Assembly: GCA_965200245.1 (NCBI GenBank)
Contig: CBDATS010000015.1
Span: 288,001 to 352,000, forward strand
Direction: 5' to 3'
Length of the DNA stretch: 64,000 nt
From: a bacterium
GTDB lineage: Bacteria > UBA8248
The notes below the pieces were generated by a model. It worked only from the letters and a program-made list of their open reading frames with translations, was not told the origin of the DNA and did not search any database. The position numbers and the translations under genes were made by a program. Of the stretch, positions 28,189 to 53,812 are shown one piece after another (the stretch's first letter is position 1; every line of letters begins with the position of its first letter).

Positions 28189-28353
28189 GTGATCGTCAGG
28201 GGACGCAGCCGCGATACGGCCTGGTTTTCCCTCACCCGGGAGGAATGATCTGCTGTCCGCCAGGCACACGACCACTGGCTCGCGCCGGACAGTTTCGACG
28301 CCACGGGCCGCCAGAAACGCCCGCCAGGCACCCTCACCCGCGCGTTTTGGTAA
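28189..28353 (+). pseudogene. Decayed 3' fragment of a GNAT acetyltransferase, paralog of 52180-52911
   Basis: Aligns to 52747-52911 (IVRGRSRDTAWFSLT...HDHWLAPDSFDATGRQK) with a 1-nt deletion and TGG>TGA. Confidence 0.85.
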
Positions 28354-28365
28354 AAGGCCTGTTTC

Positions 28366-28392
28366 CCCTGGACGATCAGTTGCCGTCCGGGG
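28366..28392. terminator. GC-rich hairpin between convergent GNAT and NHLP genes (copy 1)
   Basis: CCCTGGACG-ATCAGTTGC-CGTCCGGGG. Confidence 0.55.
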
Positions 28393-28409
28393 CAGGAAAT
28401 CGTGACACC

Positions 28410-28469
28410 CCAATCTCCCTGATACCTGCGAGCATCGTCCCAATAATCGCCGTCACTGGCGTCTTTCAA
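28410..28469 (-). pseudogene. Leaderless remnant of a second NHLP precursor (LKDASDG-DYWDDARRYQGD)
   Basis: 60 nt collinear with 52974-53033 (LKDASGG-SYWDDVDTIHMG*), stop TAG replaced by TGG. Confidence 0.8.
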
Positions 28470-28483
28470 CTTGTGTCTCCAGG

Positions 28484-28750
28484 TCATTCTGGCCAACCAT
28501 CATTGTACCATGGAGCCCCGCCGCTGACGCTCTCGAGGTCGCTGTCGGGGATCAGCGACGAGGGCGGGATCACCAGATGCGCATGATCCGCACTGTCCTC
28601 GAGCACCGAAACCGAAAAACCGGCCGGCAGGGCGACATCGAACTCGCTTTCGATCGTGCCGCGCGGGTCGTCGAGCAGTTTCTGCCGGAACGCCTCGTCC
28701 GTGCCTGCCTTCTCACTCAGCTGCTGCCGCATCTCGGCCGCTGTCTTCAT
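28484..28750 (-). CDS. NHLP (nitrile-hydratase-like leader) RiPP precursor, core APWYNDGWPE
   Basis: KA.TDEAFRQKLLDDPR, V.VLED....HLVIPP and L.DSDLESVSGG double-Gly cleavage motif; AAAGGAG RBS. Confidence 0.92.
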   Translation of the reverse strand: MKTAAEMRQQLSEKAGTDEAFRQKLLDDPRGTIESEFDVALPAGFSVSVLEDSADHAHLVIPPSSLIPDSDLESVSGGAPWYNDGWPE

Positions 28751-28821
28751 GTTCCTGTCTCCTTTCCCGAGAAAATGTGGGGAGGATACCCCAATGCTTC
28801 CGTTTTTTTTGCATCATGAAC

Positions 28822-28890
28822 AGGATATGGGATATTCCGATGGGAACGCAAGAATTTTTGGGGTTTTTCCGGTGAGGAACAGGCTTCCTC
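28822..28890 (-). promoter_or_regulatory. Putative promoter and upstream palindrome of NHLP copy 1
   Basis: TTGCGT-N18-TATCCT on the minus strand; GAGGAA-N5-TTCCTC at 28874-28890, also present at 53374-53390. Confidence 0.5.
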
Positions 28891-29276
28891 CCGGAACCCC
28901 GTCCGTGTGTCCCCGCTCTCCCGGGAAACCGGCGGCCGTAGAGTCCGTCTTTCCAAAATTCAGGTATTCAGACTTGTGGATTCAAGTATGTAGTTCCCCC
29001 CAAACGAGGACAAATAACACCCGTTTTTTTGTCAAATACGGCGCGAATAATGCAATTAACGCCATTTTAAACTCTATTTGAAAAAATCGTGCCGTTGAGA
29101 AGCACTAATCTTCATGCTAGCATGAAGATTAGTAAAAACATTTCAGAAAGATTGCTTTTTTGACACTTTTCACCCTGTAACGAGCGTGGTGGATTTTGCG
29201 GGTTTTTCGTCTATTGTTGTTCGAAGCTTTTCGCTGTAACGGGCACATCATTCTGCAACACGATAAAGGAGGGAAT

Positions 29277-30281
29277 ATGATGAAACCACTGAAAGCATCG
29301 AAACGCACTATTCCGTTCCTCACCCTTGCGCTGAGTCTGTTTGTCGTCGTTGCGCTGGGGACCACACAGGCTCTTGCTGCATGGAAGCCGACGCGGCCGA
29401 TCGAGTTCGTCATCATGGCGGGTAAGGGAGGCGGCGCGGACCGTATCGCCCGTCTCATGCAGAAAATTGTCACACAGAACAAATGGTCGCCACAGCCCTT
29501 GGTACCAATCAACAAAAAAGGCGGATCCGGCGCCGAGGCGATGCTCCATTTGCTCTCGAAAAAAGACAATCCTCACGTCATTCTGGTGACGCTGAACAGC
29601 TTCTTCACCACCCCTGCCCTGCGCAAACTGCCAGTGAACTACACCAAGCTCACGCCGGTATACCGCCTGGCCATGGACACGTTCCTGCTGTGGGTCAACA
29701 CGAAATCGGGAATCAAGAACATGGATGATTTCGTGAAGGCCGTGAAAGCCAAGAAAGGGAAATGGACCATGGGCGGCACGGGCAAAATGCAGGAGGATCA
29801 ACTCGTCACCAACATGCTCATGCAGTCTTACGGCCTGAAAGGCATGATTACCTACGTGCCCTTCCGAGGTGGCGGCACCGTGGCGAAAAACCTTGCGGGC
29901 GGACACGTCGACTCGACGGTGAACAACCCATCCGAAGGTCTGCCGCACTATCCCGGCAAGATGAAGCCGATCGCCGCGTTGACGCCCGAACGCATTCCTG
30001 CGTTCAAGGATGTCCCCACGTTCAAGGAACTGGGCAAGCCGGAACTCGTGTACTTCATGCAACGCAGCATCAACGCAGCTGGCGGCATCTCCAAGGACGC
30101 CTTGAAGTGGTACACCGATTTGTTCAATAAATTGTGCAATTCCAAAGAATGGAAAGACTATACGTCGAAGAAAGCGCTGAACCGCGCTTGCCTGAGTGGC
30201 GCTCCTCTGGGTAAGTTCTTCGCCGATGAGGACAAGAAACACAAGAAGCTGCTCATGGGTATGGGATTGCTGAAAAATTAG
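29277..30281 (+). CDS. tctC: Tripartite tricarboxylate transporter substrate-binding protein
   Basis: Signal peptide; W.PTRPIEFVI..G.GGGAD..AR, GGSGA, YVPFRGGG and VPTFKELG motifs. Confidence 0.9.
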   Translation: MMKPLKASKRTIPFLTLALSLFVVVALGTTQALAAWKPTRPIEFVIMAGKGGGADRIARLMQKIVTQNKWSPQPLVPINKKGGSGAEAMLHLLSKKDNPHVILVTLNSFFTTPALRKLPVNYTKLTPVYRLAMDTFLLWVNTKSGIKNMDDFVKAVKAKKGKWTMGGTGKMQEDQLVTNMLMQSYGLKGMITYVPFRGGGTVAKNLAGGHVDSTVNNPSEGLPHYPGKMKPIAALTPERIPAFKDVPTFKELGKPELVYFMQRSINAAGGISKDALKWYTDLFNKLCNSKEWKDYTSKKALNRACLSGAPLGKFFADEDKKHKKLLMGMGLLKN

Positions 30282-30297
30282 TCTGGAGAAGATGTAG

Positions 30298-30789
30298 ATG
30301 CAACGGGCGGATAGAATCGTCGCCATCGGGTTGATTTTCGTCAGCCTCGGCGTCGCCTGGAAAGCTACAGAACTACCCATTGGCATACTTCCCAAAGAAG
30401 GGCCAGGAGGGGGTTTCCTCCCCTTCTGGCTCTCGTTGGGGATAGCCGTCGTATCCTTGCTGGTATTGCTGCAGTCGCTGTTTCGCTCTCGGCGAAACGA
30501 AACCTCCATGGTTGATTCAGGAGTGTTCGTACGCAGGGAGGGATTGGGTGACCTGATGCGCGTCGGCTTGCCCGGGATGATCATGATTCTCTTGACCGGC
30601 GTTATTTCGGTGTACATTTCTGCCGCTCTTTTCATCTTTTATTGCCTGTTCATTATTGGGGGGCACAACATGAGGACAAGTCTCAGTGTATCGGTGGGTG
30701 TCCCTGTCGTGGTGTATTACATTTTCGAAAAGTTTTTGATTATCCCCTTGCCGAAAGGGTATGTGGAATTCCTGTTTTACTGGAACTGA
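30298..30789 (+). CDS. tctB: TTT small membrane subunit
   Basis: GPGGGFLPFW, four TM helices, FL.IPLP.G. Confidence 0.88.
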   Translation: MQRADRIVAIGLIFVSLGVAWKATELPIGILPKEGPGGGFLPFWLSLGIAVVSLLVLLQSLFRSRRNETSMVDSGVFVRREGLGDLMRVGLPGMIMILLTGVISVYISAALFIFYCLFIIGGHNMRTSLSVSVGVPVVVYYIFEKFLIIPLPKGYVEFLFYWN

Positions 30790-30869
30790 TTATTACATCT
30801 TGTCCTTTGCCCATTGTGCAGTAAGTCTCTGTAATCTCGGGGTAAGGTTTGTCCTAAGGACCGAAAAAA

Positions 30870-32399
30870 TTGGAAATTCTCGGTAATCTGTTCTACGGGC
30901 TGGGCATTGCGCTCTCACCGGAAAATCTCTTGATGGCATTGTTTGGCGTCGTTCTGGGCGTCGCCATCGGCGCAATGCCCGGGCTGGGTTCGGTGAACGG
31001 GGTCGCCATCCTCCTGCCCATCACGTTTGCGGTTCCGCCGACCAGCGCCATCATCTTCCTGGCTGCCATCTACTACGGCGCGATGTACGGCGGTGCCATC
31101 AGTTCGATCACGCTGAACATCCCTGGAGCTTCCACGGCCGTCGCGACCACTTTCGACGGCTATCCGCTGGCGAGAAAGGGGAAAGCCGCGGATGCCCTTG
31201 TGACGGCTGCGGTGGCCAGTTTCATCGGCGGGACTTTATCCATCGTCCTCTTTACATTCTTCGCCCCGCCCTTGGCCGAATTCGCCTTGCGCTTCGGCCC
31301 GCCCGAAGAATTCGCCGTCGTTCTGCTGGCCTACGCCACCTTCGCGGGTCTGGGCGGGGAAAGCCCCCTCAAAACACTCGTCGCCACCATGCTGGGCCTG
31401 CTCATGTCCACCGTTGGAACCGACATAGTGAGTGGCTCGCCACGTCTGATATTCGGGGGTATCACGGGCTTCTACCACGGCATCAATTTTATCGTGCTCG
31501 CCATTGGCATCTACGGCGTCGGGGAAATTTTCTACACCCTCGAAGAAGGATTGAAGACGAAAGAGAGATACCAGGCGAAACTCGGCGTCCACGAGATTGT
31601 CTCGACTCTCAAGAGCCTCAGGAAATGCACCGCCACCATCATGAGAGGCTCTCTGCTCGGGTTTTTCGTCGGCATGCTGCCCGCCGCAGGCGCCACGCCT
31701 GCGAGTTTCATGAGTTACAGCATCGCGAAGCGGTTTTCGAAAAAACCGGAAGAATTCGGCAAGGGAACCATCGAGGGAGTCGCCGCACCCGAGTGTGCCA
31801 ACAATGCGGCGAGTACGGGCTCCATGCTACCCATGCTGACGCTGGGAATTCCCGGTTCCCCGACCACGGCGGTAATGCTCGGTGCCCTTTTCGTGTGGGG
31901 ACTCGTGCCGGGGCCCCGACTGTTCGTCGAAAACGCGGAATTCGTCTGGGGTCTTACGGGGAGCCTCTACATCGCGAACACCCTATCGGTCATCGTCGCT
32001 ATATTCGCCGTACCCATCTTCATCTGGATGCTAAGGATGCCCATGACGATTCTGGCCCCGATCATCTTGGTCATCTGTGCGGTGGGCGGATTCTCGCCGA
32101 CACAGGACATGTTCGATGTCTATCTCATGTTCATATTCGGCGTTATCGGCTACGTGTTCCGCAAACTCGACTATCCCCTCGCCCCGATGGTACTGGCACT
32201 GGTTCTGGGAGGGTTGACAGAGCGCACTTTCCGCCAGAGTATGATCATGAACCACGGGAGCCCCAGCATCTTTTTCGACTTCGCAGGTCATCCCATCGCG
32301 GCGGTGTTGATGATGCTTTCCGTCGTCTTGTTCGTCCTGCCGCTCGTGCCTATGATCTTCAAATTCAGGGCCTCGCGGGCGGACACTTCGACCGGATAA
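30870..32399 (+). CDS. tctA: TTT large permease
   Basis: GAMPGLG, YYGAMYGG, AAPECANNA and LTLGIPGS motifs. Confidence 0.93.
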   Translation: MEILGNLFYGLGIALSPENLLMALFGVVLGVAIGAMPGLGSVNGVAILLPITFAVPPTSAIIFLAAIYYGAMYGGAISSITLNIPGASTAVATTFDGYPLARKGKAADALVTAAVASFIGGTLSIVLFTFFAPPLAEFALRFGPPEEFAVVLLAYATFAGLGGESPLKTLVATMLGLLMSTVGTDIVSGSPRLIFGGITGFYHGINFIVLAIGIYGVGEIFYTLEEGLKTKERYQAKLGVHEIVSTLKSLRKCTATIMRGSLLGFFVGMLPAAGATPASFMSYSIAKRFSKKPEEFGKGTIEGVAAPECANNAASTGSMLPMLTLGIPGSPTTAVMLGALFVWGLVPGPRLFVENAEFVWGLTGSLYIANTLSVIVAIFAVPIFIWMLRMPMTILAPIILVICAVGGFSPTQDMFDVYLMFIFGVIGYVFRKLDYPLAPMVLALVLGGLTERTFRQSMIMNHGSPSIFFDFAGHPIAAVLMMLSVVLFVLPLVPMIFKFRASRADTSTG

Positions 32400-32455
32400 G
32401 CGGAGATTTCGCAGCCGTAACTGTCTGAATCAGGTAGATTTTTCGGCGAACGGTT

Positions 32456-33352
32456 TCATACGTCCATCGCACAGCGAAAGCCGATATTGAAATTCTTGTA
32501 CCAAGGCTCAAAGCCCTCTCTCGCCGAGCACCGCAGACTGTCTTCGATGTAATCCCAGCCGCAGCCCCGTGCAACCTTGGCCGTCCATGCGTAGCCGGCC
32601 CTGCGGGGGAGCCAACCCTCGGTGTTCCCGAAGCGTATCTTGTAACTGTCCTCGTCGCGGTGAAGGATTTCGTAGCGTTCTCCGCGCCTGACCTCGCCCA
32701 GGTTCAGACTCCCCCCGCCCGGAACGGCGAACACCGGCACCCGCGCCATCGCCACCTCGAAGGTCGGCTTGTCCAGCCCCTGCGGATTCACCGCCGGGCC
32801 CGTCTGGTAATAGAACCCGTCGAACCAGTCGGCCACCCACTCGAAAACGTTGCCCGCCATCTGCACGCAATGATAGGGAGAGGCACTTTCAGCGAACTCC
32901 TTCACGTTGCTCGGGCAATGAACGTCGGTTTCCGTGCTCGCATAGACGGCCCTCCCGGGAGAGGGTTCGTCCTCCCCCCAGGGATACTTGCGGCCGTCCG
33001 TTCCGCGCGCCGCCTTTTCCCATTCCGCCTCGCTCGGCAGGCGCTTGCCTACCCAGCGGGCATAGGCGTTCGCCTCATCCCAGCTTATGCTGACAATGGG
33101 CTGATCCGGTCCCACGAAATCGTCTCTCGCGAACGAGGGCGGAGCAGGAAACGCTTCGGTTTCCTCGAGGAAGGCGCGGTACTGCGCATTCGTCACGCAG
33201 TATTTGTCGATCCAGAAAGCGTCGAGGGTAACCTCGCGCTGCGGACGCTCATCCGCGTTCCCGATGTCCGAACCCATCAGAAACTTCCCCTCCGGTACGT
33301 ACACCATTGCGGCTTCGTCTTTTCCTTTTCTCATTTCCTGAACTTTGTTCAT
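32456..33352 (-). CDS. Formylglycine-generating enzyme (SUMF1/EgtB/PvdO) family protein with SH3b-like insertion
   Basis: F.MGS, ERPQREV, VTNAQY, RLPSEAEWEKAARG, MAGNVFEW and IGFRC motifs; ~60-aa insert before ARGCGW. Confidence 0.88.
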   Translation of the reverse strand: MNKVQEMRKGKDEAAMVYVPEGKFLMGSDIGNADERPQREVTLDAFWIDKYCVTNAQYRAFLEETEAFPAPPSFARDDFVGPDQPIVSISWDEANAYARWVGKRLPSEAEWEKAARGTDGRKYPWGEDEPSPGRAVYASTETDVHCPSNVKEFAESASPYHCVQMAGNVFEWVADWFDGFYYQTGPAVNPQGLDKPTFEVAMARVPVFAVPGGGSLNLGEVRRGERYEILHRDEDSYKIRFGNTEGWLPRRAGYAWTAKVARGCGWDYIEDSLRCSAREGFEPWYKNFNIGFRCAMDV

Positions 33353-33389
33353 CTTCTACTCTTTCGCTTTACGGTTTTCCGGGATAAGC

Positions 33390-33420
33390 AAAAAAGAGCG
33401 GGGCCCCGAAAGGCCCCGCC
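33390..33420 (-). terminator. Rho-independent terminator after the oxidoreductase beta gene
   Basis: GCGGGGCC-N6-GGCCCCGC followed by TCTTTTTT on the minus strand. Confidence 0.75.
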
Positions 33421-33452
33421 GTAAAACCATCGACACTTGTTTCCTGGAACCG

Positions 33453-34481
33453 TTACTTCTTGCTCGGATCGTTCACCTTGAAAGGAATCACGCCAGGAAC
33501 CATCCAGTCGTCCCACATCTTGTCCACTTCGCTCTGGAAGTATTCGTAGTCTTCCTCTTCAAAGTGGTGGAAACGCCCCTGTGTCTCCAGGTACTCGCGC
33601 ACGGGCTTGCGAGAACGCTTGCCGTATACCTGACGTGCGGAAATGCCCGTGTAGGTGAGTGCTCCGTCCGTCATCTCCCAAAGCGGGAAGAGGCCCGTTT
33701 CCACGGCCAGTTCGCCGAGCTTGTGGGAGTAGAACGGATCATAGTCCCAGCCCTTCGGGCACGGGTCGAGTGTGTGCACGAAGGCGGGGCCCTTCACGGC
33801 CAGCGCCTTGCGTACCTTGTCGATCAAGTCGGCGGGATAGGAAGCGTCGGCCGTTGCTACGTAATTACAGCGCGTGTGACCGACCGCGTACATGGCGGCA
33901 ATATTCTTTTTCCAGCAATCGTGCATGATGCGGAACTTCTTGCCCGGAGGCGTGAACGTCGTGTTGGCACCCCAGGGAGACGCGCCGGAAATCTGGATGT
34001 CCGTGTTCGCATACGATTCGTTGTCGTAGCAAATGATCGCCAGATTGTACTTCGCGTGCATGAGTGCCGCCGATATGGAGGAAACGCCCATGTCGATGCC
34101 GCCGCCGTCGCCGCAGAAGGCGATGACGTTGATGGGTTCTTCTTTCATCTTACCCTTGCGCATCAGCGCGCGCAGGGCCGCCGCCGTTCCCGTCGCCGCA
34201 GAACCCGAAGAGCCCAGCTGCGTGTGCATCCATGGCACGACCCACGGGGTGCTGTAATAGGTGGTGTTCGCCACGTACATGCATCCCGTGCTGCCCAGAA
34301 TGATGGAACGAGGGCCTGCCGCCTTGGCCATGAGACGCATGATGAGCGCACTCTCACAACCCTGGCATGTCCTGTGCCCGCTGGTGAAATATTCTTCCAC
34401 CGCTTTCTGGGGAATGGCGTTCACCTTCCCCATCAAGGGAAGTTCCTGGGTTCCGATGTTGTATTCAGAGGTTTCAGCCAT
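33453..34481 (-). CDS. 2-oxoacid:ferredoxin oxidoreductase beta subunit (TPP-binding; oxalate oxidoreductase-like)
   Basis: GHRTCQGC, TGCM, GDGG, YDNESYANT and PCPKGW motifs. Confidence 0.9.
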   Translation of the reverse strand: MAETSEYNIGTQELPLMGKVNAIPQKAVEEYFTSGHRTCQGCESALIMRLMAKAAGPRSIILGSTGCMYVANTTYYSTPWVVPWMHTQLGSSGSAATGTAAALRALMRKGKMKEEPINVIAFCGDGGGIDMGVSSISAALMHAKYNLAIICYDNESYANTDIQISGASPWGANTTFTPPGKKFRIMHDCWKKNIAAMYAVGHTRCNYVATADASYPADLIDKVRKALAVKGPAFVHTLDPCPKGWDYDPFYSHKLGELAVETGLFPLWEMTDGALTYTGISARQVYGKRSRKPVREYLETQGRFHHFEEEDYEYFQSEVDKMWDDWMVPGVIPFKVNDPSKK

Positions 34482-34484
34482 GAT

Positions 34485-35702
34485 TTAGTCCCTCACTCCG
34501 ATCCAGTCGACATTGTTGTCGGCAGTATCGTTCTGGCCCATGGAAATGACCTTGTCAGTCATCAGTTTGACATCTTCGAGCAGTACCTCTCGGCCACCGA
34601 GGCCGCAGACGAACCCTTTCATATGAGGCACTTTGTCCGCTCCGTACATGGCGGCTTTCACTTCATTGAACACTATACCACCATGATAGGGTGAACCAAA
34701 CGAGTAGTCGCGGTCGATGACGCCCACTGCCTTGAAACGCGAGAGTGACGTGCGCAACTCTTCCGTCGGGAAGGGGCGGAACCACTTGAGGCGAACGAGG
34801 CCCACCTTCTTCCCTTCCTTGCGCATTTCGCGGATGGCGACCTTCACCGGCAGGCTGAGTGTCCCCATGCCGCAGAGCACGACATCAGCGTCCTCGGTCA
34901 TGTACTCATCAAGGAAGGGGTCCGTGTCAACGTCAAATATCCTGCAGAAATCGGCATGGGCCTCCTTGAGTACGTCGTATGAATTTTTCGCCGCCTCACT
35001 GCTCTGGCGCCGCACTTCCATGAGCCAGTCTTCGTTTGCCTGAGGGGCGATGGTGATCGGGTTGTCCGGGTGAAGCAGCAGGTCACCCCTGTCGTAGGGC
35101 GGGAGGAACGCGTCGACCTGCTCCTGGCCCGCCAGCCGAACCGTCGCCTGGCTGTGCGTGAGGAACGCGCCGTCCATGGCGATGGCGCAAGGCAAGTACA
35201 CCCTCGGATCCTCCGCCACGCGGTACGCCATGAGGCCGAGCTCGACGACTTCCTGCGCCGTGTCGGGAAAGTTGATCATCCAGCCCAGATCCCGTACGAG
35301 CATTGCGTCGTTATGCTCGGTGCCGAACGCGCCGGGGTCATCAAGCGCGCGGCAGCCGACCAGTGCCACCATGGGTAGGCGCAGGCCCGCCGTAACGGCC
35401 AGTGGCTCCATCGCATAGAGCCAGCCCACACCGCTTGATCCGGTGAACACGCGCGCGCCGCAGGCCGAAGCGTGCTTGACGATCTCGAACTGCCCGTGCT
35501 CACTCTCCGCCGGAATGTAGTCGGCGTCGAATTCACCTTCGGCGATGAATTTCGAGACGTACTGCATCACGGTGTCATACGGCCGGATCGGGTACGCCGT
35601 GATAACATCCACGTCGGCGAGGCGGCACACGTGGGCCATCACCTCGCTTCCGGTGAGGAGATGAACTCCCGCACCTTGCTGTTGTTCGGTAGCTGTCGTC
35701 AT
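34485..35702 (-). CDS. 2-oxoacid:ferredoxin oxidoreductase alpha subunit (oxalate oxidoreductase-like)
   Basis: YPIRPY (Arg in place of PFOR Thr), ESEH, TGSSGVG and FRPFP motifs. Confidence 0.9.
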   Translation of the reverse strand: MTTATEQQQGAGVHLLTGSEVMAHVCRLADVDVITAYPIRPYDTVMQYVSKFIAEGEFDADYIPAESEHGQFEIVKHASACGARVFTGSSGVGWLYAMEPLAVTAGLRLPMVALVGCRALDDPGAFGTEHNDAMLVRDLGWMINFPDTAQEVVELGLMAYRVAEDPRVYLPCAIAMDGAFLTHSQATVRLAGQEQVDAFLPPYDRGDLLLHPDNPITIAPQANEDWLMEVRRQSSEAAKNSYDVLKEAHADFCRIFDVDTDPFLDEYMTEDADVVLCGMGTLSLPVKVAIREMRKEGKKVGLVRLKWFRPFPTEELRTSLSRFKAVGVIDRDYSFGSPYHGGIVFNEVKAAMYGADKVPHMKGFVCGLGGREVLLEDVKLMTDKVISMGQNDTADNNVDWIGVRD

Positions 35703-35715
35703 CAGTTCGCTCCTA

Positions 35716-45123: not shown

Positions 45124-45185
45124 GAAATCCCTCCAAGTTCAGCGAATCCGTCCTGCCGGTAGCGGAACTCCAGCGAGCACTCCGT

Positions 45186-46367
45186 CTAACCGGTGTATTC
45201 CAATATATGCATTCCCGCCCCGTTTCGATCGATCAGGTACAACAAACCGTTTTCATCCACGCCGATGTCGTTCGACTGGACGTAGTCCTTCCCGAAGTTG
45301 AGTTCCGGGATATAATGCCCTGCTTCCCTGGGCTTGAAGGGGTCCGAGAGATCAATGGCACGAAGCCCCGAATTGAAATACGTGAGGAAAACGATATCCT
45401 TCCAGGGTCCGTCAGCGGGCGTGTATTCCAGAATGTTGTGCGCGCCGAAACGACCACCCCGGTTCATGTTCTCTTCCCTTTCCGGTATGTACGTCGAAAC
45501 GGGGATCGGGTTCGTCTCGTCCCGAATGTCCACCACCCACATGAACTGGCTGCTCTCGTAGTTTTCCTGAGCGCGCGCCTCGTCTGTCACCACCACATAG
45601 GGTCTGTCGCCGAGCGGCCACACGGTATGCGTGGAGCCGACGAAGGGTGGCGACCAGCAGAGGTGTCCCACGCACTTGATGTCGCGCAAGTCGCTGCAAT
45701 CGAAAATACCCATTCCGCCCCCCCAGAAGCCGCAGTACATGCGATCTCCCCGGATAGTCGCCGGTCCGTGGCAAGTCCAGGAACGTTCGAAATCTTCGGG
45801 TTCCTCGTATTCATGATCGAGGCTCATATCCTGTTGCGGAAGACCGACGATATTCAGCACTTCGGGTTTCAGGGGGTTCGTGATGTCGAGTGTCCACATG
45901 ACACGGTTTCGCCACCCCTCTGCATGATTCGGCAAGAAAGCGAGCCCACGCTCGTTGTCGACACCGAATCGATGCGGTCCGGTGCCGGGCAGATCGAAAA
46001 AGCCGACTTCCCTGGGTTCCGCCGGATTGGAGATATCGAAAATACACACGCCCGCCCTCGCCTTCTCGCCTTCCGGCGTCTTGAGGCGTTCGTGATTCAC
46101 GTACAGCAGGTCGTCTCCCACGATACGCACCTTGTGGTTATGAAGACCGGGTGGTGCGAACACCTCGGCGATGCGCTTGGGATTACCAGGGTCGGATACG
46201 TCATGGACGGTCCAGCCCTCAGGACCGTCGTAGCTCGCCGTTCCCACCGCGCCCACATAGGCATATCCGTCCTTCACCTCTACCAGGCTGCCCCCTCCCC
46301 ACGCCGCGTCCGGGTCGTGCCCGATAAGTTTGAAATTCCTCGCTTCCGCCGGTGCGCCCCTCGCCAT
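45186..46367 (-). CDS. LVIVD-repeat beta-propeller protein
   Basis: Repeated IFDIS.PA.P.EVG units; VVTDE, RFGAHN and YFNSGLR motifs. Confidence 0.85.
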   Translation of the reverse strand: MARGAPAEARNFKLIGHDPDAAWGGGSLVEVKDGYAYVGAVGTASYDGPEGWTVHDVSDPGNPKRIAEVFAPPGLHNHKVRIVGDDLLYVNHERLKTPEGEKARAGVCIFDISNPAEPREVGFFDLPGTGPHRFGVDNERGLAFLPNHAEGWRNRVMWTLDITNPLKPEVLNIVGLPQQDMSLDHEYEEPEDFERSWTCHGPATIRGDRMYCGFWGGGMGIFDCSDLRDIKCVGHLCWSPPFVGSTHTVWPLGDRPYVVVTDEARAQENYESSQFMWVVDIRDETNPIPVSTYIPEREENMNRGGRFGAHNILEYTPADGPWKDIVFLTYFNSGLRAIDLSDPFKPREAGHYIPELNFGKDYVQSNDIGVDENGLLYLIDRNGAGMHILEYTG

Positions 46368-46405
46368 TGTCCGCCTCCTGTGAGTCGCCAGAAAATCAAC
46401 GGTGA

Positions 46406-47284
46406 TTACGAGCGGTCTTTCCCCTCGTACACCTCCACCACACGCGCGCAATCATCTTCCGTCCAGCCCGCGTCATGCGCGTGCCGGAACATATCAAGCG
46501 CGGATTCCGTCATACAGGCATCAAATCCTTTTTCTCTTGCCAAGTCAACGCAGAGACCAAGATCTTTCACGTATATTCCCACCGAAGCGTGGGGTGTGAA
46601 ATCGCGTTCGAGAATCTTCTCTCCTTTCAGGTCCAGAAGAACGCTCGCCGCCGCTCCCGAGCGCAGGCAGGACAGAATGGTATCGGTCGATAAGCCCGAA
46701 CGCTCGCCCAGAAGTAAACCTTCCGCCAGCAGGGCAACGCCCGCGTTCACGATGAGGTTTGTCACCAGTTTCATGGAACAGCCGGTTCCGTTGGCTCCGG
46801 TATGGAGGACGCTTTTGGCCAGGGGCCCGATGATGGGCTTTATTCGTTCGAAAATTTCTTTTTTCCCGCCCACCATGTAGGCCAGTGTTCTCGACTCCAC
46901 GTGCGGCACGGTTCCCGATACGGGGGCATCGACCATCTCCACGCCCCTGGCTACGAGCTTTCTTGCCAAATCAGCCGACCAGGTCGGGTTCATCGTGCTC
47001 ATTTCGACCAGGATAAGACCTTTCTTTCCTGCAGTGGCGATCCCTTCCGCCCCGATGGTATTCATCTCGATGTGTTCGGGCCTGAGCAGCATGGTGAAAA
47101 CCACGTCCGAACGCTCGGCCACCTCTTTCGCATTCATGCAAGGGGTTCCCCCCGCCTCTTTTAACTGCTCCATGCGAACAGGGTCGACGTCGAAACCCGC
47201 CACCTCATGGCCGTCCGCAAGCAGGTTTCGGGTCAGGGGCGTTCCCATCTTGCCAAGACCAACAAATCCCAATTTCTCACGCAT
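46406..47284 (-). CDS. NAD(P)-dependent beta-hydroxyacid dehydrogenase (3-hydroxyisobutyrate dehydrogenase family)
   Basis: GFVGLGKMG, DAPVSG, K...N and KDL motifs. Confidence 0.92.
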   Translation of the reverse strand: MREKLGFVGLGKMGTPLTRNLLADGHEVAGFDVDPVRMEQLKEAGGTPCMNAKEVAERSDVVFTMLLRPEHIEMNTIGAEGIATAGKKGLILVEMSTMNPTWSADLARKLVARGVEMVDAPVSGTVPHVESRTLAYMVGGKKEIFERIKPIIGPLAKSVLHTGANGTGCSMKLVTNLIVNAGVALLAEGLLLGERSGLSTDTILSCLRSGAAASVLLDLKGEKILERDFTPHASVGIYVKDLGLCVDLAREKGFDACMTESALDMFRHAHDAGWTEDDCARVVEVYEGKDRS

Positions 47285-47432
47285 GCTTCATCTCGCCTCC
47301 CGATATGACAATGAACCATGTTTCGTTCGATCGTTTCACTTCACCCTCGATGAGAGCGTAGAATACACAGGTTTTTCAAAGATAGCCGGATATTTCGCTT
47401 TGTGAACTGATAATGCGATGGAGAGGAGACCC

Positions 47433-48509
47433 ATGCCAGCCACTCCCCTGCTCGACTTGCACCAGGCCGCCAATGCCCGACTCATGAAAGAAGACGGTTG
47501 GATGATCCCCGCCTCGTTCGAAGACGCGGTCTCGGAGCATCTTGCATGCAGGGAAAGCGCCATCCTGGTCGATCTCTCCCACAGGGGGCTTCTTCGCTTC
47601 AGCGGCCCGGACACCGGAGAGTTTCTCCACCGCATGCTTTCCAACCGCGCACAGGAACTCAGACCCGGAGAGGGCGTGTACAACACTTTCCTGACGCGTC
47701 AGGGCAAGTTTATATCCGATATGTACATGTACCAGAGCGAAAATTCCATTCTCGCTTCCGTGGCTTCCGGAATAGCGCCGGTGCTTGCCGAGGAAATCGA
47801 CAGATTCATCATCATGGATCAGGTGGAAGTGACAGATGAGACGGAATCCTGTTTCTGTCTCGCTCTCTTCGGCCCCTATTCAAGAGAAATAATCGCGCAA
47901 GCAGGAATGGGCGATCCCTCTCCCGAAGAACACGGCCACACGGCGTCAGGAAACGTAGTAATGGCCCGCGAACTGTGGACCGGAGAAGACGGCTATCTGT
48001 TCCTGGGCCTTCGCGAGGAAGCGGAGCATCTCTGGCGGACGCTATTGGAGGCAGGCGCGAAGCCTGCGGGCATCGCCGCATTCGAATCGCTCACGCTGGA
48101 AGCAGGCGTGCCGCTTTTCGGCAAGGACATGACCTCGGCCGTCAACCCCATGCAGGCGGGACTTGAAGAAAAGGCCATCGATTTCCAGAAAGGTTGCTAC
48201 ATCGGTCAGGAGGTCATCGCCAAGATCAAGTATCTCGGCCAGGTGAACCGGGGCCTCGTGGGGCTAAGGCTCGATGGAGAAACCGTCCCCGAGCCGGGAG
48301 CCGCCGTTTTCGCAGGCGATCAGAACATCGGTTCCATCACCCGGTCCGCGTATTGCCCGACGCTCGACACCATACTCGCTTTTTCGTATCTGCCTCGCGC
48401 GCAGATGGAGCAGGGATATGTGGTAAGCGTAGATTGCCAGGGAGCAAATGCGCGCGCAACGGTCAGGAACCTGCCCTTCTATCGCAGGGAAAGCGAAGCC
48501 ATCAGCTAG
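47433..48509 (+). CDS. ygfZ: YgfZ/GcvT-family folate-binding protein
   Basis: DLSHRG and KGCYIGQEV motifs. Confidence 0.85.
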   Translation: MPATPLLDLHQAANARLMKEDGWMIPASFEDAVSEHLACRESAILVDLSHRGLLRFSGPDTGEFLHRMLSNRAQELRPGEGVYNTFLTRQGKFISDMYMYQSENSILASVASGIAPVLAEEIDRFIIMDQVEVTDETESCFCLALFGPYSREIIAQAGMGDPSPEEHGHTASGNVVMARELWTGEDGYLFLGLREEAEHLWRTLLEAGAKPAGIAAFESLTLEAGVPLFGKDMTSAVNPMQAGLEEKAIDFQKGCYIGQEVIAKIKYLGQVNRGLVGLRLDGETVPEPGAAVFAGDQNIGSITRSAYCPTLDTILAFSYLPRAQMEQGYVVSVDCQGANARATVRNLPFYRRESEAIS

Positions 48510-48719
48510 GACGGGAGAGTTCGATACAATCCAGAAATTCGGGTGACGGACGAATCGAAAACTACCCCGAAGCGCTTTTGACTTCTTTTATCCTGCGAGG
48601 CATATTGCGGCCTTCTTTGGGCGGGTTTCGGTGGAATTCGCGATTCATTCCGGAGAATTTTTTCCGCACGACAGACCCTCTCTTTTCAAGGAATTCCGCT
48701 CCCCTGGAGGAAGAAACAG

Positions 48720-50369
48720 ATGGCGTCAACCAAGGAAGGGGGAAAGTCACCTTCCTCACCTGTAAAAATTGGAACGGAAAAAACGTTCGGCCTCCATGAA
48801 GTTGGCCTCAAGAACGTAGGCAAGGTATACCGGAATCTCCCCATCCCCACACTCAACGAAATGGCGGTCGCGCGAGGCGAAGGTTACCTCGCTCCCAACG
48901 GGGCGCTCGTGGTTCATACCGGCAAATTCTCGGGCCGCTCGCCCAAAGACAAGTTCACGGTCGATCAGAACCCGTCCAACAAGAAGATATGGTGGGGTCC
49001 CATCAACCAGAAGATATCGACTGAAAACTGGGACAACATTTTCCAGAAAATAGCCAGCTATGCCCAAAAGCGCGACCTCTTTATCTTCGACGGTTTCGTG
49101 GGCAATGACGCGAGATACAAACTGCCCGTGCGCGTCATTTCAGAACTCGCCTGGCATTCGATGTTCTGCCAGACGCTGCTCGTGCGTCCCGAGCCCGGTG
49201 AACTCGACACTCACAAAAACCCCTTTACAGTAATCGACATGGGCAGGTTTCTGGGTGCGGGACCGACGGAAGGACTCCGGCAAGAGAACTTTACACTGGT
49301 GAATTTCGAGAAAAACATGGCGCTCATCGGCGGATCGGAGTATGCCGGCGAGATGAAGAAATCGGCCTTTTTCATCATGAACTACCTCCTTCCCCAAAAG
49401 GGCGTCTTCCCGATGCACTGTTCGGCGAACATGGGTCACGGCGGAGACACGGCTCTTTTCTTCGGCCTCTCCGGCACGGGAAAGACCACGTTGTCCGCAG
49501 ATCCGAACCGAAAGCTCATCGGCGACGACGAACACGGCTGGTCGGATACCGGCATCTTCAATTTCGAAGGCGGATGCTACGCGAAAACCATCAATCTCAC
49601 GCGGGAAGATGAGCCCCAGATTTGGGATGCCATCCGCTTCGGTTCCGTTCTCGAGAATGTTATCGTCGATCCGCTTACGCGGGAAATCGATTATGACGAC
49701 ATGTCGATAACCGAAAACACACGCGCCACCTATCCCAACCACTTCATTGACAACTGCGTGCTCTCGGGCATGGGAGGGCATCCGAAAAACATTTTCTTTC
49801 TCACCTGTGACGCGTTCGGCGTACTGCCCCCTATCAGCAAGCTCACTCCCGAACAGGCCGCCTACCATTTCCTCTCCGGCTATACGGCGAAAGTGGCGGG
49901 TACCGAAGCTGGTGTCGATGATCCGATGGCTACGTTCAGCAGTTGTTTCGGGGCGCCATTCCTCGCCCTGCATCCCGCCGAATACGGCGAAATGCTCATG
50001 GACAGGCTCAGGAAACACAACGCGCAGGTATGGCTCGTCAACACCGGCTGGATCGGGGGAGCCGCTGGCGAGGTTGACAGGATGCCGCTGCATCATACGC
50101 GCGCGCTTCTGACAGCCGCACTTACGGGCGAACTTGCCAAGGTTCCCACCCAGGACGTGCCGATTTTCGATTTGCACGTCCCGACAAGCTGCCCCGGAGT
50201 GCCGCAGAAATATATGATTCCCAGAAATCTCTGGAGAAGCAAGAAAAAATACGACGAGAAAATACACGAGCTCGCAGTAGAGTTCCAGAAGAATTTCGAC
50301 CAGTTCAGAGGCCGTGTGACACCGGACGTCGCAGCGGCAGGCCCGAAAAACCAGATGGTTGCTACATAG
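48720..50369 (+). CDS. pckA: Phosphoenolpyruvate carboxykinase (ATP)
   Basis: GRSPKDK, YAGEMKK, GLSGTGKTT, LIGDDEH and EGGCYAK motifs. Confidence 0.97.
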   Translation: MASTKEGGKSPSSPVKIGTEKTFGLHEVGLKNVGKVYRNLPIPTLNEMAVARGEGYLAPNGALVVHTGKFSGRSPKDKFTVDQNPSNKKIWWGPINQKISTENWDNIFQKIASYAQKRDLFIFDGFVGNDARYKLPVRVISELAWHSMFCQTLLVRPEPGELDTHKNPFTVIDMGRFLGAGPTEGLRQENFTLVNFEKNMALIGGSEYAGEMKKSAFFIMNYLLPQKGVFPMHCSANMGHGGDTALFFGLSGTGKTTLSADPNRKLIGDDEHGWSDTGIFNFEGGCYAKTINLTREDEPQIWDAIRFGSVLENVIVDPLTREIDYDDMSITENTRATYPNHFIDNCVLSGMGGHPKNIFFLTCDAFGVLPPISKLTPEQAAYHFLSGYTAKVAGTEAGVDDPMATFSSCFGAPFLALHPAEYGEMLMDRLRKHNAQVWLVNTGWIGGAAGEVDRMPLHHTRALLTAALTGELAKVPTQDVPIFDLHVPTSCPGVPQKYMIPRNLWRSKKKYDEKIHELAVEFQKNFDQFRGRVTPDVAAAGPKNQMVAT

Positions 50370-50401
50370 AGACCAACTCCCCTTGCGAAGGAGGTATTCC
50401 G

Positions 50402-50587
50402 ATGCCCGTTGTTCAGGTAAGCTTGTTGTCAGGAAGAACCAAGGAGCAAAAAGGCGCGATGGCGGATGAGATTACGGAGACGGTCCACAAGCACTCGGGC
50501 GCCCCGAAAGAAGTCATCACGGTCATATTCCAGGACATCGAAAGGGATTCCTGGGCCGCGAACGGAACGCTCTACGCGGACAGGTAG
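50402..50587 (+). CDS. 4-oxalocrotonate tautomerase family
   Basis: N-terminal Pro, GRTKEQK, 61 aa. Confidence 0.92.
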   Translation: MPVVQVSLLSGRTKEQKGAMADEITETVHKHSGAPKEVITVIFQDIERDSWAANGTLYADR

Positions 50588-50620
50588 TGACGATAATTCT
50601 TTCACGTGAGGAGGGTCGAA

Positions 50621-51478
50621 ATGAACGTCGACAATTTCCGGCTCGCACTCGTGCAGCCGATGGGATATCCCCCACCCGATGATGAAAAAAACGTGGCCGA
50701 CGCCGTTCGATACGTCGAAGACGCCGCTGCCCAGGGGGCCGATTTCGTCGCCTTTCCAGAATCGTATCCCGGCCCCTGGCGCATGCCGGCCACGTTCGAC
50801 CCCACCGAGGCGATGGAAGAAGTAGCCAAGCGATGCGGCGTTTACGTTCAGTACGGAACCCTGGAGCCGCTGGACGTCGAGAAAAAAACGGCCCATAACC
50901 TGTTGAACCTCGCTCGACCTGCCGGCGGCCCCTCCGGACGCTATCGCAGGACTCATCCTCCCGGACCATGGATATACACTGGTGGCGGTATCTGGGAGTT
51001 CCAGTACGTCGCGGGAAACGAATACCCCGTTTTCGAGACCCGCTACGGCCAGGTAGGAATGGCGATGTGCAGCGAGGTCTATATGCCTGAAGTTACCCGC
51101 GCGCTCTCCCTGCGGGGAGCGGAGATCATCTTCCTGCCTGCGGGCGTGGACAAGAAAAAGCTGTGGGGCACCTGGCGAAACCTCATCTGGTCACGCGCGA
51201 TTGAGAATCTCGCCATCGTCATCACCACACAGAACCTTTTTGACAAGAGCCAACGCGGACTGGCGATGGTGGCGACGCCTGAAGAAGTCATATTCGAGAG
51301 TACGAAGGCCGGCATGTTCATGGTCGATGTGGATCTGGAGCGAATCCGCGAGCTTCGCAAGCAAAACGACGAAGTGACATCCTCGGGGCAAAACGCGGCC
51401 AAGGCCGGCGTGCTGACGCAGTGGCAACGGCCCGAACTATACGACAAGTTTTTCCCCAGAGAAGGCGCTGCCAGCTAA
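50621..51478 (+). CDS. Carbon-nitrogen hydrolase (nitrilase superfamily)
   Basis: FPE, YRRTH, MCSE and RAIEN motifs. Confidence 0.88.
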   Translation: MNVDNFRLALVQPMGYPPPDDEKNVADAVRYVEDAAAQGADFVAFPESYPGPWRMPATFDPTEAMEEVAKRCGVYVQYGTLEPLDVEKKTAHNLLNLARPAGGPSGRYRRTHPPGPWIYTGGGIWEFQYVAGNEYPVFETRYGQVGMAMCSEVYMPEVTRALSLRGAEIIFLPAGVDKKKLWGTWRNLIWSRAIENLAIVITTQNLFDKSQRGLAMVATPEEVIFESTKAGMFMVDVDLERIRELRKQNDEVTSSGQNAAKAGVLTQWQRPELYDKFFPREGAAS

Positions 51479-51489
51479 AGGAACATACA

Positions 51490-51512
51490 CCCCCGGGGCG
51501 CTGGTCCCGGGG
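51490..51512 (+). terminator. Hairpin after the nitrilase gene
   Basis: CCCCGGG-N8-CCCGGGG. Confidence 0.4.
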
Positions 51513-51540
51513 CGATTTCCCATAAATTTTCTCCTAGAAG

Positions 51541-52056
51541 ATGCGAATGTCAAACACCAGTTTCTGGCTTCTCTACGTTCACATCCTGGCGGCCTGCCTG
51601 TATGAAGGGGCACTTGTCTTCTTCTGTTTTCTGACGCGACATCTGCGGCGCAGGCTCTCGCCGGAGGAATATGCAGACGAGATCATTTCCATCCTGCAGT
51701 TTTATCACCCCTTCGTGCTCATCTGCATGGGCGTGTTGATCATGACGGGCGCGTGGTATCTGACGGGCTTGAAGATGACCATGGGCCCCGCATTCGGGAA
51801 GATATTTGTGCCGTTGGGCCTGAAATTGCTGACGGTATTTCTGATGATGATGGGAATCAGCTTTCAGTTCTTCGCGGTGGGTCTCAGGCTAACGCGGGGG
51901 TTGGGACTGGGACCCGCTGGAAACGGACGTTCCATAGGCGATATGACGGAAGAGCGCACCAAATTGCTGAGGACGCTCGAGCGTGTGAATCTCGCCAATG
52001 CAGTCCTCGCACTGTTTGCCATATTTTTCGGACTCGCGCTGAATAAGGGTTTTTAG
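51541..52056 (+). CDS. Hypothetical 4-TM membrane protein (CopD/DUF2269-like)
   Basis: HILAA helix, TG in TM2, LGLKL in TM3. Confidence 0.65.
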   Translation: MRMSNTSFWLLYVHILAACLYEGALVFFCFLTRHLRRRLSPEEYADEIISILQFYHPFVLICMGVLIMTGAWYLTGLKMTMGPAFGKIFVPLGLKLLTVFLMMMGISFQFFAVGLRLTRGLGLGPAGNGRSIGDMTEERTKLLRTLERVNLANAVLALFAIFFGLALNKGF

Positions 52057-52179
52057 TCAAATGTTTGCGAGTCAGAATTAATGCAAAACTTGATATTATT
52101 TTAGCCGACGAAATTTATCTGGAACCGCTCGAATCTATCGATATTTGCCTGATTTTCCCAAAGACTTTGAGGGTTCTTC

Positions 52180-52911
52180 ATGGCTACGGGCCCGGAACTC
52201 GCCAGTGCTGCGAACAGACGCCCCGTCAGCGGTGCCAAAGTCGTCCCGCGCCGCTGGGAAGGGTTCTCGGGCGTCAATCTATCAGGTCCCAGAACCTCGA
52301 CTGAACCGCTTGATGCGGAGCGCGACACGGCTGGCATCTACCGTGCTGCGACAGAAGGTGAAGAACCCGAGCGGATATTCGATTACATGAGCGTGGGTCC
52401 CTTCTCAAATGAAGAGGAGGTGCACGCCCTGCTCCTTGAGCGTCAGGCTTCCCGCGACCCGCTGTACGTCATCTACCGCGACTCCGCCACGGGTCGCCTC
52501 GGCGGCATGGGCAGTTTCATGGAGATCAGGCCTGCCGCCGGAGTCGTCGAAATCGGCCATATCTGGTTCGGACGCGCCTGGCAGCGCAGCGTGCTGGCCA
52601 CGGAAGTCATCTCGCTCAAAATGCGCCACGCCCTGGAAACCCTGGGCTACCGTCGCCTGGAATGGAAATGCGACGCCCTGAACACGGCCTCGCGCTCCGC
52701 AGCCCTGCGTCTAGGCTTTCGTTATGAAGGCATTTTCCTGAATCACATGATCGTCAAGGGACGCAGTCGCGACACCGCCTGGTTCTCCCTCACCCAGGAG
52801 GAATGGCCTGCCGTCCGCGAAGCACACGATCACTGGCTCGCGCCGGACAATTTCGACGCCACAGGCCGCCAGAAATGCCCGCTAAGCGCCCTCACCCGCG
52901 CGCTTTGGTGA
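52180..52911 (+). CDS. GNAT N-acetyltransferase, RimJ/RimL type
   Basis: VEIGHIWF, LGYRRLEWKCDALN, A.RLGF.YEG and KGRSRDTAWFS motifs. Confidence 0.92.
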   Translation: MATGPELASAANRRPVSGAKVVPRRWEGFSGVNLSGPRTSTEPLDAERDTAGIYRAATEGEEPERIFDYMSVGPFSNEEEVHALLLERQASRDPLYVIYRDSATGRLGGMGSFMEIRPAAGVVEIGHIWFGRAWQRSVLATEVISLKMRHALETLGYRRLEWKCDALNTASRSAALRLGFRYEGIFLNHMIVKGRSRDTAWFSLTQEEWPAVREAHDHWLAPDNFDATGRQKCPLSALTRALW

Positions 52912-52924
52912 AAAGGCCTGGGGT

Positions 52925-52952
52925 CCCCGGTCGACCAAGCAGTCGTCCGGGG
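52925..52952. terminator. GC-rich hairpin between convergent GNAT and NHLP genes (copy 2)
   Basis: CCCCGG-T-CGAC-CAAGCA-GTCG-T-CCGGGG. Confidence 0.55.
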
Positions 52953-52973
52953 AAGGAAATCGTGACACCCATT

Positions 52974-53246
52974 CTAACCCATATGAATGGTATCCACATC
53001 ATCCCAATAGCTGCCGCCACTGGCGTCTTTCAACTGTTCATCGGTGAGCCGGGACGGAGGCGGAAGGACGAGATAGCTGTTCTCGGCGTCGTCTTCCATC
53101 ACATGCAGGTTGAAATTCTCCGGCATCGTTACCCCGAACTCCTCCGATATCACGGCCTTCGGTTCAGAAATCAGACGGGCGCGGAACTCCTCGCTGTCGC
53201 CTGCCTTCTCGATCAGGTGCTCGCGCATCTCGGTGACGGATTTCAT
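52974..53246 (-). CDS. NHLP RiPP precursor, core SYWDDVDTIHMG (90 aa)
   Basis: AAAGGAG RBS, ATG at 53246; KAGDSEEFRARLISEPK, LHVMED...YLVLPP and LTDEQLKDASGG motifs. Confidence 0.92.
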   Translation of the reverse strand: MKSVTEMREHLIEKAGDSEEFRARLISEPKAVISEEFGVTMPENFNLHVMEDDAENSYLVLPPPSRLTDEQLKDASGGSYWDDVDTIHMG

Positions 53247-53812
53247 TCTGGTCTCCTTTCCTGAGGAAATGAGTATGGGTGGATACCTCCGATGCCTTGT
53301 TTGCATCGTTGCCATGAACAGGGTATGGGACATTCCGGTGGGAAGGCGAGAAATTTCCTGACGTTTTTCTCGTGAGGAACAGGCTTCCTCCCGGAATCCC
53401 GTCCGTGTGTCCCCCGTTTTCCCGGAAACCGGCGGCGGCAGAATCCCCAGGCAAAGGATAATCAAACCAAGTATGTCAAAGAGAGGTTCAAATTGAAGAT
53501 ATTGAATGGATGAGTGAGTCCACTTTGTGATGAACACGAGAAAAAGCCTTGAGACGAAACCCTAGAAAGAGTCAGGCCGTATCCGGGGCATGAAACCAGA
53601 GATGTGTCGAATTACTACCCGCCGGGGTATCCAGTAAAATATCAGGAAGGGATTATGGAAGAGAAAAATTTCAGAGAAGACAGTTTTTCAGAAAGGCGCA
53701 TTCTTGCTGGTTAGGAGTTACGAAAAATACAGAAAAAGATGTATTAAATTGGGGTTTATATCCTTAACTTCCTGTCATTGTTAAATTCCTTTCACATCTG
53801 CTTGATTTTTCT

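Follow-up and report, generated by a model that had tools for sequence, protein, structure and literature searches.

The 64,000-nt window analysed here (positions 288,001 to 352,000 of contig CBDATS010000015.1, assembly GCA_965200245.1, from a UBA8248 bacterium) raises the question of how two genes for precursors of RiPPs, peptides made on the ribosome and modified after translation, came to lie in matching DNA while encoding different peptides. Both genes are read from the minus strand. Precursor A (28484–28750 including the stop codon) encodes 88 aa and scored 62.4 bits against TIGR03793, the NHLP leader peptide family, while precursor B (52974–53246 including the stop codon) encodes 90 aa and scored 68.6 bits; both lie above the curated cut-off of 50.9 bits and bear out the reading of the two opposite-strand open reading frames (ORFs) as NHLP precursors in the initial annotation of this DNA. 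The leaders end in a double-glycine-type site (...VSGG/APWY in A, ...ASGG/SYWD in B), a feature which recurs as GG, GA or GS in 21 of the 24 distinct precursors listed from this genome, and the cores that follow are indeed different: ...SVSGG is followed by APWYNDGWPE in A, which has an A-type leader, and ...DASGG by SYWDDVDTIHMG in B, which has a B-type leader. Pairwise DNA alignment confirmed that 28189–28936 and 52747–53436 are collinear and that the flanks agree better than the leaders. The upstream segment, about 186 bp before the start codon, is 77.2% identical (142/184), the DNA between the stop codon and the GNAT acetyltransferase sequence, comprising a gene remnant and a hairpin, 73.7% (87/118), and the 3′ piece of the GNAT gene 87.8% (144/164), whereas the leader coding DNA reaches only 57.7% (120/208). 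The GNAT gene is full-length at B only (52180–52911, plus strand; Acetyltransf_3, PF13302, 52.1 bits), where it is syntenic with the congeners; copy A keeps its last 164 bp (28189–28352, plus strand). Neither a maturase, a C39 transporter nor a prenyltransferase-like gene was found among the 49 of 57 window ORFs that were scanned, all of them housekeeping genes, nor with our own profile.

We consider it likely that both stretches belong to one family of non-autonomous transposable cassettes of about 0.6–1.0 kb, of the kind called mobile insertion cassettes (MICs) or cargo-carrying miniature inverted-repeat transposable elements (MITEs), whose products would be processed in trans. A repeat unit is present at A as initially annotated, but the extent given for it was too small, the true unit (27994–28998, minus strand, 1005 bp) being bounded by inverted repeats. 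Whole-genome BLAST returned a 1005-bp twin, 100% identical to copy A and with the same boundaries, at C2:243328–244332, and the ends of this twin coincide exactly with the inverted repeats; with an identical second copy and repeats at both ends, copy A is a complete mobile cassette. The terminal inverted repeats lie on the promoter side at 28954–28998 (TIR-R, minus strand; nhmmer E = 1.5e-14) and on the far side at 27994–28038 (TIR-L, plus strand; E = 2e-11). Throughout the family these imperfect repeats are about 45 nt long and read GGGAATTA(C/T)(A/C)TACTTGAATCC(G/A)CAAGTCTG... The two arms of copy A were aligned directly, because a 1-nt indel splits them for automated repeat finding; 37 of 47 columns were identical, a score reached by none of 5000 shuffles. 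Copy A thus runs from inverted repeat through promoter region, precursor gene and captured DNA to inverted repeat, and it sits between a thioesterase gene and tctC.

Several kinds of evidence speak for transposition. The first comes from the sequences flanking the 11 elements that have repeats at both ends (599–1005 bp), the element ends being set by a profile built from 16 inverted-repeat arms. The flanking 8-mers agree at all eight positions in three elements, at seven in three, at six in two, at four in two and at two in one, so that 8 of the 11 carry matching 8-bp duplications (at least 6/8); for random 8-mers at the same spacing, the probability of such a match is 0.007. Secondly, a precise empty site was found for the 705-bp element at C4:1426664–1427368, whose flanks abut in five congeners (G004, G006, G008, G010 and G030). 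Specifically, G004 holds a single AAAAATTC (...GGCCGAAAAATTCAGATATTTCG...), while this genome holds AAAAATTC, the 705-bp element and AAAAATTC again (...GACCGAAAAATTC, element, AAAAATTCAGATATTTTG...). The same cassette interrupts an ORF that is uninterrupted in these five congeners, and the host gene is probably broken. Thirdly, the spacing between the thioesterase gene and tctC is 216–235 bp in G002, G003, G011 and G012 and 27 bp in G006, compared with 1545 bp here, so cassette A is an insertion too, although its junction is not base-precise. Concerning the C2 twin, its two flanks are not syntenic in the congeners; its C2-side junctions are carried by contigs from DNA runs of two studies, which shows that the C2 context is real DNA and not an assembly slip. 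At copy B, the region downstream of the GNAT gene varies among the congeners. An 8-bp duplication fits elements of the IS256 type, and the IS256-like repeat resident in this genome has ends different from those of the cassette. On every criterion tested, the cassette DNA behaves as a transposable element that is non-autonomous and bears a passenger gene, and the precursor library is probably carried and spread by it. Plain duplication, which had been put forward as the cause of the two copies, gives way here to transposition, as the target-site duplications and the precise empty site show.

The family extends far beyond the window. Using our own leader profile together with the inverted-repeat profile, we identified 28 loci with A- or B-type leaders in this assembly (15 contigs, 95.8% complete, 8.1% estimated contamination): 11 with both repeats, nine with the promoter-side repeat only, one with the far repeat only and seven, copy B among them, with none. 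The distributed precursor library envisaged in the initial annotation is therefore real, with conserved leaders, hypervariable cores and a common upstream region; that annotation had held that two copies alone and no NHLP-associated maturase would speak against it, and the genome holds 28 loci, an NHLP-type exporter and candidate maturases. For TIGR03793 we counted 34 places above the cut-off, or 32 distinct ones after correction for a contig end assembled twice, compared with 0–5 places in each of 22 congeners and none in seven of these. The promoter and repeat DNA gave 33 matches here and none in the 22 congeners, bar one 23-nt match at chance level. By these sequence comparisons the burst of cassettes is confined to one lineage. 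Searches with the terminal repeat matched only precursor loci and a few solitary ends, and an exact-pattern scan of metagenome contigs with a 30-nt inverted-repeat consensus returned no stretches. Three such solitary sites (C15:52463–52582, C4:729593–729702 and C4:1248769) share the first ~20 bases of the terminal repeat and then diverge; two of them have ~120 bp in common, and the sites may mark the termini of a larger element that is related to the cassette.

The shortest element (599 bp) consists of an inverted repeat, about 205 bp of upstream DNA leading to AAGGAG and ATG, the precursor gene, about 25 bp and the second inverted repeat. No transposase lies inside the elements (599–1005 bp), the precursor being the sole ORF with a family match. 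Most elements have an additional module of about 125 bp on the 3′ side of the gene, which holds a short inverted repeat resembling the ends of IS256-like elements; in copy A this nested repeat lies at 28075–28140 (25-nt arms, 80% complementary). Its match is the end of an IS256-like repeat of 1244 bp present at C4:705182–706424 and C5:732589–733832, pieces of which, 32–50 nt long, occur many times in the congeners and in one genome of another family. A sub-lineage of four elements (copy A, its C2 twin, C4:570771 and C8:198493) carries additionally the intergenic hairpin and the 164-bp GNAT 3′ end. In copy A the hairpin of the initial annotation (approximately 28355–28400) is an inverted repeat rich in G+C that separates the precursor from the GNAT piece, and it is kept in copy B. 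Since the GNAT piece is 96% identical between elements, 88% identical to the genome's own GNAT gene and 76–83% identical to the GNAT genes of congeners, it is captured flanking DNA. Copy B, a derivative that lacks inverted repeats, stands beside the intact GNAT gene, an arrangement from which the capture could have started. Its upstream region (53247–53446, minus strand) is truncated, no inverted-repeat profile match lies near the locus, and an intergenic inverted repeat separates precursor B from the GNAT gene at 52912–52973, as seen in the sequence and the A/B alignment. The match to congeners at this place ends with the GNAT stop codon, and the precursor DNA beyond it is not matched.

The disparity between flanks and leaders is explained by the composition of the cassettes. 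The two leader subtypes, A and B, are 41% identical as protein, and the A-type leader occurs in seven nearly identical instances with different cores. At C2:304598–305596 a B-type gene lacking its first ~12 codons stands behind an A-type gene, and in copy A only the last ~25 B-type codons follow the A-type gene, as an out-of-frame remnant of the B-type C-terminus (KLKDASDGDYWDD..., 28405–28472, minus strand; ORF listing and A/B alignment columns 557–620). A-type genes standing before B-type remnants indicate that the A-type gene recombined into B-type cassettes; the flanks of A and B agree better than their leaders because the flanks are B-type cassette DNA and A carries the second leader subtype. 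Furthermore, certain cores terminate in DNA with homology to the GNAT junction (CCTTGACGATCA), which indicates that new C-termini arise by deletion and fusion, beyond point change.

The conserved flanks, which the initial annotation took for a separately selected regulatory element, are accordingly the body and ends of a transposable cassette. The shared upstream region of copy A (28751–28953, minus strand), conserved in about 25 copies, contains the ribosome-binding site AAGGAG and presumably the promoter and 5′ untranslated region. As this DNA is part of the cassette, common control of the copies would follow from their common descent. A structured regulatory RNA was considered and dropped, RNAalifold on 17 distinct upstream regions giving a weak structure (-2.9) with almost no covariation, and at the gathering threshold Rfam models matched only a tRNA in the window. 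A terminator-like hairpin with a T-rich run stands just before the ribosome-binding site of precursor A (28778–28793, minus strand) and is weaker in other copies.

According to the explanation that we propose, a promoter belonging to the cassette would drive transcription of the precursors, cleavage would follow GG, GA or GS and a single NHLM C39 ABC exporter on contig C8 would carry out the export, while Trp or Tyr next to the cleavage site would be modified by enzymes encoded elsewhere. New cores would arise at the 3′ end via deletions, fusions and recombination, and a transposase would act in trans. The exporter belongs to an HlyD-ABC1-ABC2 operon that holds the only C39 peptidase gene of the genome. 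ABC1, which contains the C39 domain, scored 902.2 bits against TIGR03796 (cut-off 853.3), while ABC2 (683.9 against 709.4) and HlyD (81.9 against 156.2) stayed below their cut-offs. The C39 gene carries QxxxxECG and HFVV, which we take to be the C39 Cys and His motifs. The processing in trans proposed earlier thus holds in that no processing gene lies in the window and the one C39 exporter is on another contig; the trans action itself is our deduction. Concerning maturases, no SPASM (TIGR04085), YcaO (PF02624) or Trp-halogenase match was obtained in the 95.8%-complete genome, nor one for LanC (PF05147), in a search whose control was equally without a match.

When the genes adjoining all precursor loci were clustered, a single recurrent family of ~350 aa emerged, which has no match in Pfam or NCBIfam. 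None of five paralogues matched a Pfam or NCBIfam prenyltransferase model at E ≤ 1, and no sequence match was found in the PDB. Its AlphaFold (AF2) model is an alpha-beta-beta-alpha (ABBA) barrel (pLDDT 91.1, pTM 0.90). The 50 entries listed by VIA-align were all aromatic prenyltransferases, and 133 chains reached a Z of at least 8; the best match was 4yl7 (Z = 15.8, rmsd 4.3, 290 residues aligned), and MpnD, CymD, DMATS1, FunA, NphB and others gave Z values of 14–16 with ~290 of 340 residues aligned. Foldseek returned a probability of 1.00, with PagF among the matches. The modelled fold of the family is therefore that of ABBA (PT-barrel) aromatic prenyltransferases; its members are candidate maturases and their activity is predicted. 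The family is large and unnamed, with 3832 cluster representatives at E ≤ 0.001 and a Pfam domain in none of 71 close clusters. In this genome seven such genes were found, the four intact ones at C2:5567–6745, C2:7332–8687, C8:325398–326591 and C15:99063–100316; the paralogues are 24–32% identical to one another, bar one pair at 60%. One intact paralogue (C15:99063–100316) and two broken ones adjoin B-type cassettes. The pairing is also seen elsewhere: in other metagenome-assembled genomes (MAGs), one of them a congener, a precursor ending in YY lies directly upstream of the enzyme gene in four of four loci (in the order precursor, prenyltransferase-like gene, HlyD, ABC1, ABC2, prenyltransferase-like gene), and in six congeners the enzyme gene is adjacent to a precursor in eight of eight sampled loci, with no inverted repeat there. 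A link between the prenyltransferase-like family and NHLP precursors is thus well supported, and the family may modify A or B in trans. For the complex of the C15:99063–100316 paralogue with precursor B, structure prediction gave a score of 0.31 against a mark of 0.32, from which we draw nothing.

Some neighbours of these genes deserve mention on their own. On C8, a 318-aa ORF (L002:9755–10711, plus strand) is located between the NHLM exporter and a prenyltransferase-like gene that is broken; its match to the C-terminal domain of squalene-hopene cyclase is weak and falls short of the cut-off (21 bits, cut-off 26.1; E = 2e-4), and it could be a terpene-cyclase-like partner. On C2, a cytochrome P450 gene (L004:3836–5128, minus strand) stands beside a YY-type precursor and two prenyltransferase-like genes; it is 66% identical to the one in a homologous cluster of another MAG (L013), and the exporter genes of this cluster are reduced in the present genome to a 209-aa ABC2 fragment. 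In several congeners, ORFs of 435–533 aa with an N-terminal NHLP-like domain below the TIGR03793 cut-off (L056:14168–15472, minus strand; L058:5825–7129, plus strand) lie ~6–7 kb from the pair of precursor and prenyltransferase-like gene; none was seen in this genome. In the congener loci L056–L060, the precursors accompanied by a prenyltransferase-like gene in convergent orientation terminate in ...AGLCCCW or ...AGLSCCW, Cys-rich cores with a C-terminal Trp that are very different from the cassette cores.

Several observations weigh against the explanation as a whole. Copy A in the window shows no clear target duplication (4/8, compared with 7/8 in its C2 twin) and copy B has no inverted repeats, while BLAST and nhmmer with the repeat profile found no autonomous element or transposase with matching ends in this assembly. 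With 8.1% contamination and 15 contigs, some copies may belong to different strains of one population. One cluster at a contig end is assembled twice (C2:1023–5838 equals C15:1–4816, 4816 bp in opposite orientation, and C2:1–1032 repeats C2:5831–6862), so copy counts must allow for the duplicate. On the side of the cargo, the modifying enzyme for A and B, if any, is putative, TAG nonsense codons interrupt two of the seven prenyltransferase-like genes and a frameshift breaks a third, and the precursors at C2:3299–3564, C2:26427–26668, C4:571201, C8:198923 and C4:1517709 are frameshifted, lack the GG site or read through. A sigma-70 scan found no consensus promoter on the precursor strand. Finally, the evidence from RNA libraries consists of contigs that do not show strand, ends or level, and such libraries can hold DNA.

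Among the alternatives, the one that survives best, which we still consider unlikely, is that the peptides exist but stay unmodified, with an NHLP leader that only marks them for cleavage and export by the C39 exporter in the manner of class II bacteriocins or peptide pheromones, and with prenyltransferase-like enzymes that act on none but their own neighbouring precursors. The lack of a maturase adjoining A or B would fit this, as would paralogues only 24–32% identical, each by its own precursor type, and a genome in which no YcaO, SPASM or Trp-halogenase gene was found. Against it, however, stand the intact paralogue and the two broken ones beside B-type cassettes, the pairing of precursor and enzyme in all 12 loci examined elsewhere, and the cores themselves. 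The 21 distinct cores are 3–15 residues long and contain 9.4% Trp and 12.6% Tyr, compared with 1.1% and 2.2% across this genome's long ORFs; Cys occurs in only one of them (DMDWCTSSGAV) and Ser and Thr are few. All 21 have Trp or Tyr among their first four residues, compared with 12.5% expected, some cores being related by descent. An invariant aromatic residue at core positions 1–4 is what an enzyme modifying aromatic rings would need. In the explanation that we prefer, the ABBA-fold prenyltransferase-like enzymes, with four intact paralogues, would modify the Trp or Tyr beside the point of cleavage; the prenylation of these particular peptides is a tentative proposal.

Less probable is a selfish MITE that carries a small ORF as cargo in decay and spreads by transposing, while its peptides are no longer made or relevant. 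The broken enzyme genes, the precursors that are frameshifted, GG-less or reading through, the insertion that disrupts a host ORF and the limitation of the burst to one genome speak for such an element, yet the cargo bears marks of use. Over 62 gap-free codons of 14 B-type leaders, mean dN was 0.090 and mean dS 0.284, and the ratio of 0.32 points to purifying selection (85 of 91 pairs with dS > 0.05; the pairs are non-independent). All 21 distinct cores keep Trp or Tyr next to the cleavage site and the exporter looks intact. The precursor part is, moreover, present in RNA-library contigs: contigs from two runs of one study cover 27993–28657, including part of the leader coding sequence (28517–28657 within precursor A), and some run on into the IDRWGSRDYG core of another copy. 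They leave 28778–29179 uncovered, a gap not readable as a transcription start. The public runs holding 27600–29400 are labelled sponge metagenome or bear one organism label (coded A), and two metatranscriptome runs of one study hold ~0.44 of the sampled words of that interval.

Very improbable, lastly, is an ordinary segmental duplication with gene conversion of a chromosomal precursor gene, its flanks kept as a regulatory element and no transposition involved: copy B and six other loci without inverted repeats, the mosaics of A-type gene and B-type remnant, which show recombination between copies, and the unclear target duplication at copy A are in its favour, but it leaves unexplained the inverted repeats exactly at the ends of a 100% duplicate, the 8-bp flanking duplications of eight of 11 complete elements, the precise empty site, holding one copy of the target, that congeners show for an element which interrupts an ORF here, and the absence of element DNA from all 22 congeners.

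Returning to the transposable precursor cassette, its likeness to systems already known is partial. In the prochlorosins of marine cyanobacteria, procA genes with a Nif11 leader are served by one lanthionine synthetase, ProcM. Like these, the present library comprises dozens of dispersed precursors with conserved leaders, hypervariable cores and enzymes encoded elsewhere. In contrast, the leader here is NHLP (TIGR03793) and not Nif11, the cores of 3–15 residues are rich in Trp and Tyr with almost no Cys, Ser or Thr, and the copies lie on transposable cassettes with inverted repeats and target duplications; as for the LanM of the prochlorosins, the genome gave no LanC-like match, the search control being silent too. 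The library thus works like the prochlorosin arrangement and is not a member of that kind, since leader, chemistry and enzyme differ. In NHLP/NHLM systems a TIGR03793 precursor accompanies a TIGR03796, TIGR03797 and TIGR03794 exporter, with YcaO cyclodehydratases, SPASM radical SAM enzymes or LanM as the classical partner maturases. The precursors above cut-off, the leader ending in GG and the ABC1 exporter with a C39 domain above cut-off agree with this, whereas the exporter genes lie on a different contig, ABC2 and HlyD fall below their cut-offs, and YcaO and SPASM were not found.

As a kind of element, mobile insertion cassettes and cargo-carrying MITEs have been described (PMC4337579, PMC5444012), and the present cassettes share with them terminal repeats, target duplication, the lack of an internal transposase, a passenger gene, many copies and empty sites. 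They differ in that the passenger is a promoter with a RiPP precursor gene and that no matching autonomous insertion sequence was found in this assembly. Our literature search found no paper joining RiPP precursors with MITEs or such elements as cargo. Regarding NHLP precursors and prenyltransferases, only two of the papers found were relevant. In the first, PalX of Paenibacillus alvei is an NHLP-type precursor with a short core and a prenylated Trp, whose leader helps the enzyme PalQ; PalQ belongs to the isoprene-synthase (ComQ-like) superfamily, and a single PalX gene stands in a cluster of three genes (PMC10853753). An NHLP-type precursor with a short core is shared, while the candidate enzymes here have the ABBA barrel fold instead. 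In the second, the barrel-type prenyltransferase MppC needs the long leader of MppE, which is Nif11-like and precedes a lanthipeptide core (PMC12715784). The barrel-type fold is common to our family, to MppC and to cyanobactin prenyltransferases such as PagF, the known ones acting on peptide Trp or Tyr. The family here matches no curated prenyltransferase model at E ≤ 1, and its prenylating activity is predicted from the modelled fold.

Large RiPP families with a constant leader and variable cores are a natural model for peptide library engineering. The expansion of such families is mostly attributed to duplication and recombination. In the present case its driving force can be seen, namely an inverted-repeat cassette with presumably its own promoter, 8-bp duplications, a precise empty site in relatives and 28 loci in a single lineage, and the new point, which we hold with good confidence, is that a precursor library owes its spread to a transposable cassette, which carries it. 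With more reserve, and as a tentative extension, the cassette may be seen as a generator of peptide diversity: promoter, leader and core would jump together, insertion, capture and imprecise 3′ deletion would write new Trp/Tyr-rich cores, and the leader would be recognized in trans by an undescribed ABBA-fold family and one exporter. If the peptides are made and prenylated, mobile-element biology would be tied to natural-product diversification. These would then be the first RiPP precursor genes known as MITE or MIC cargo and a mobile-element route to a library of prenylated peptides; the cassettes would also supply some 20 natural substrates for a large unannotated family with a prenyltransferase fold, and there would be reason to look for small passenger ORFs in other MITE families.

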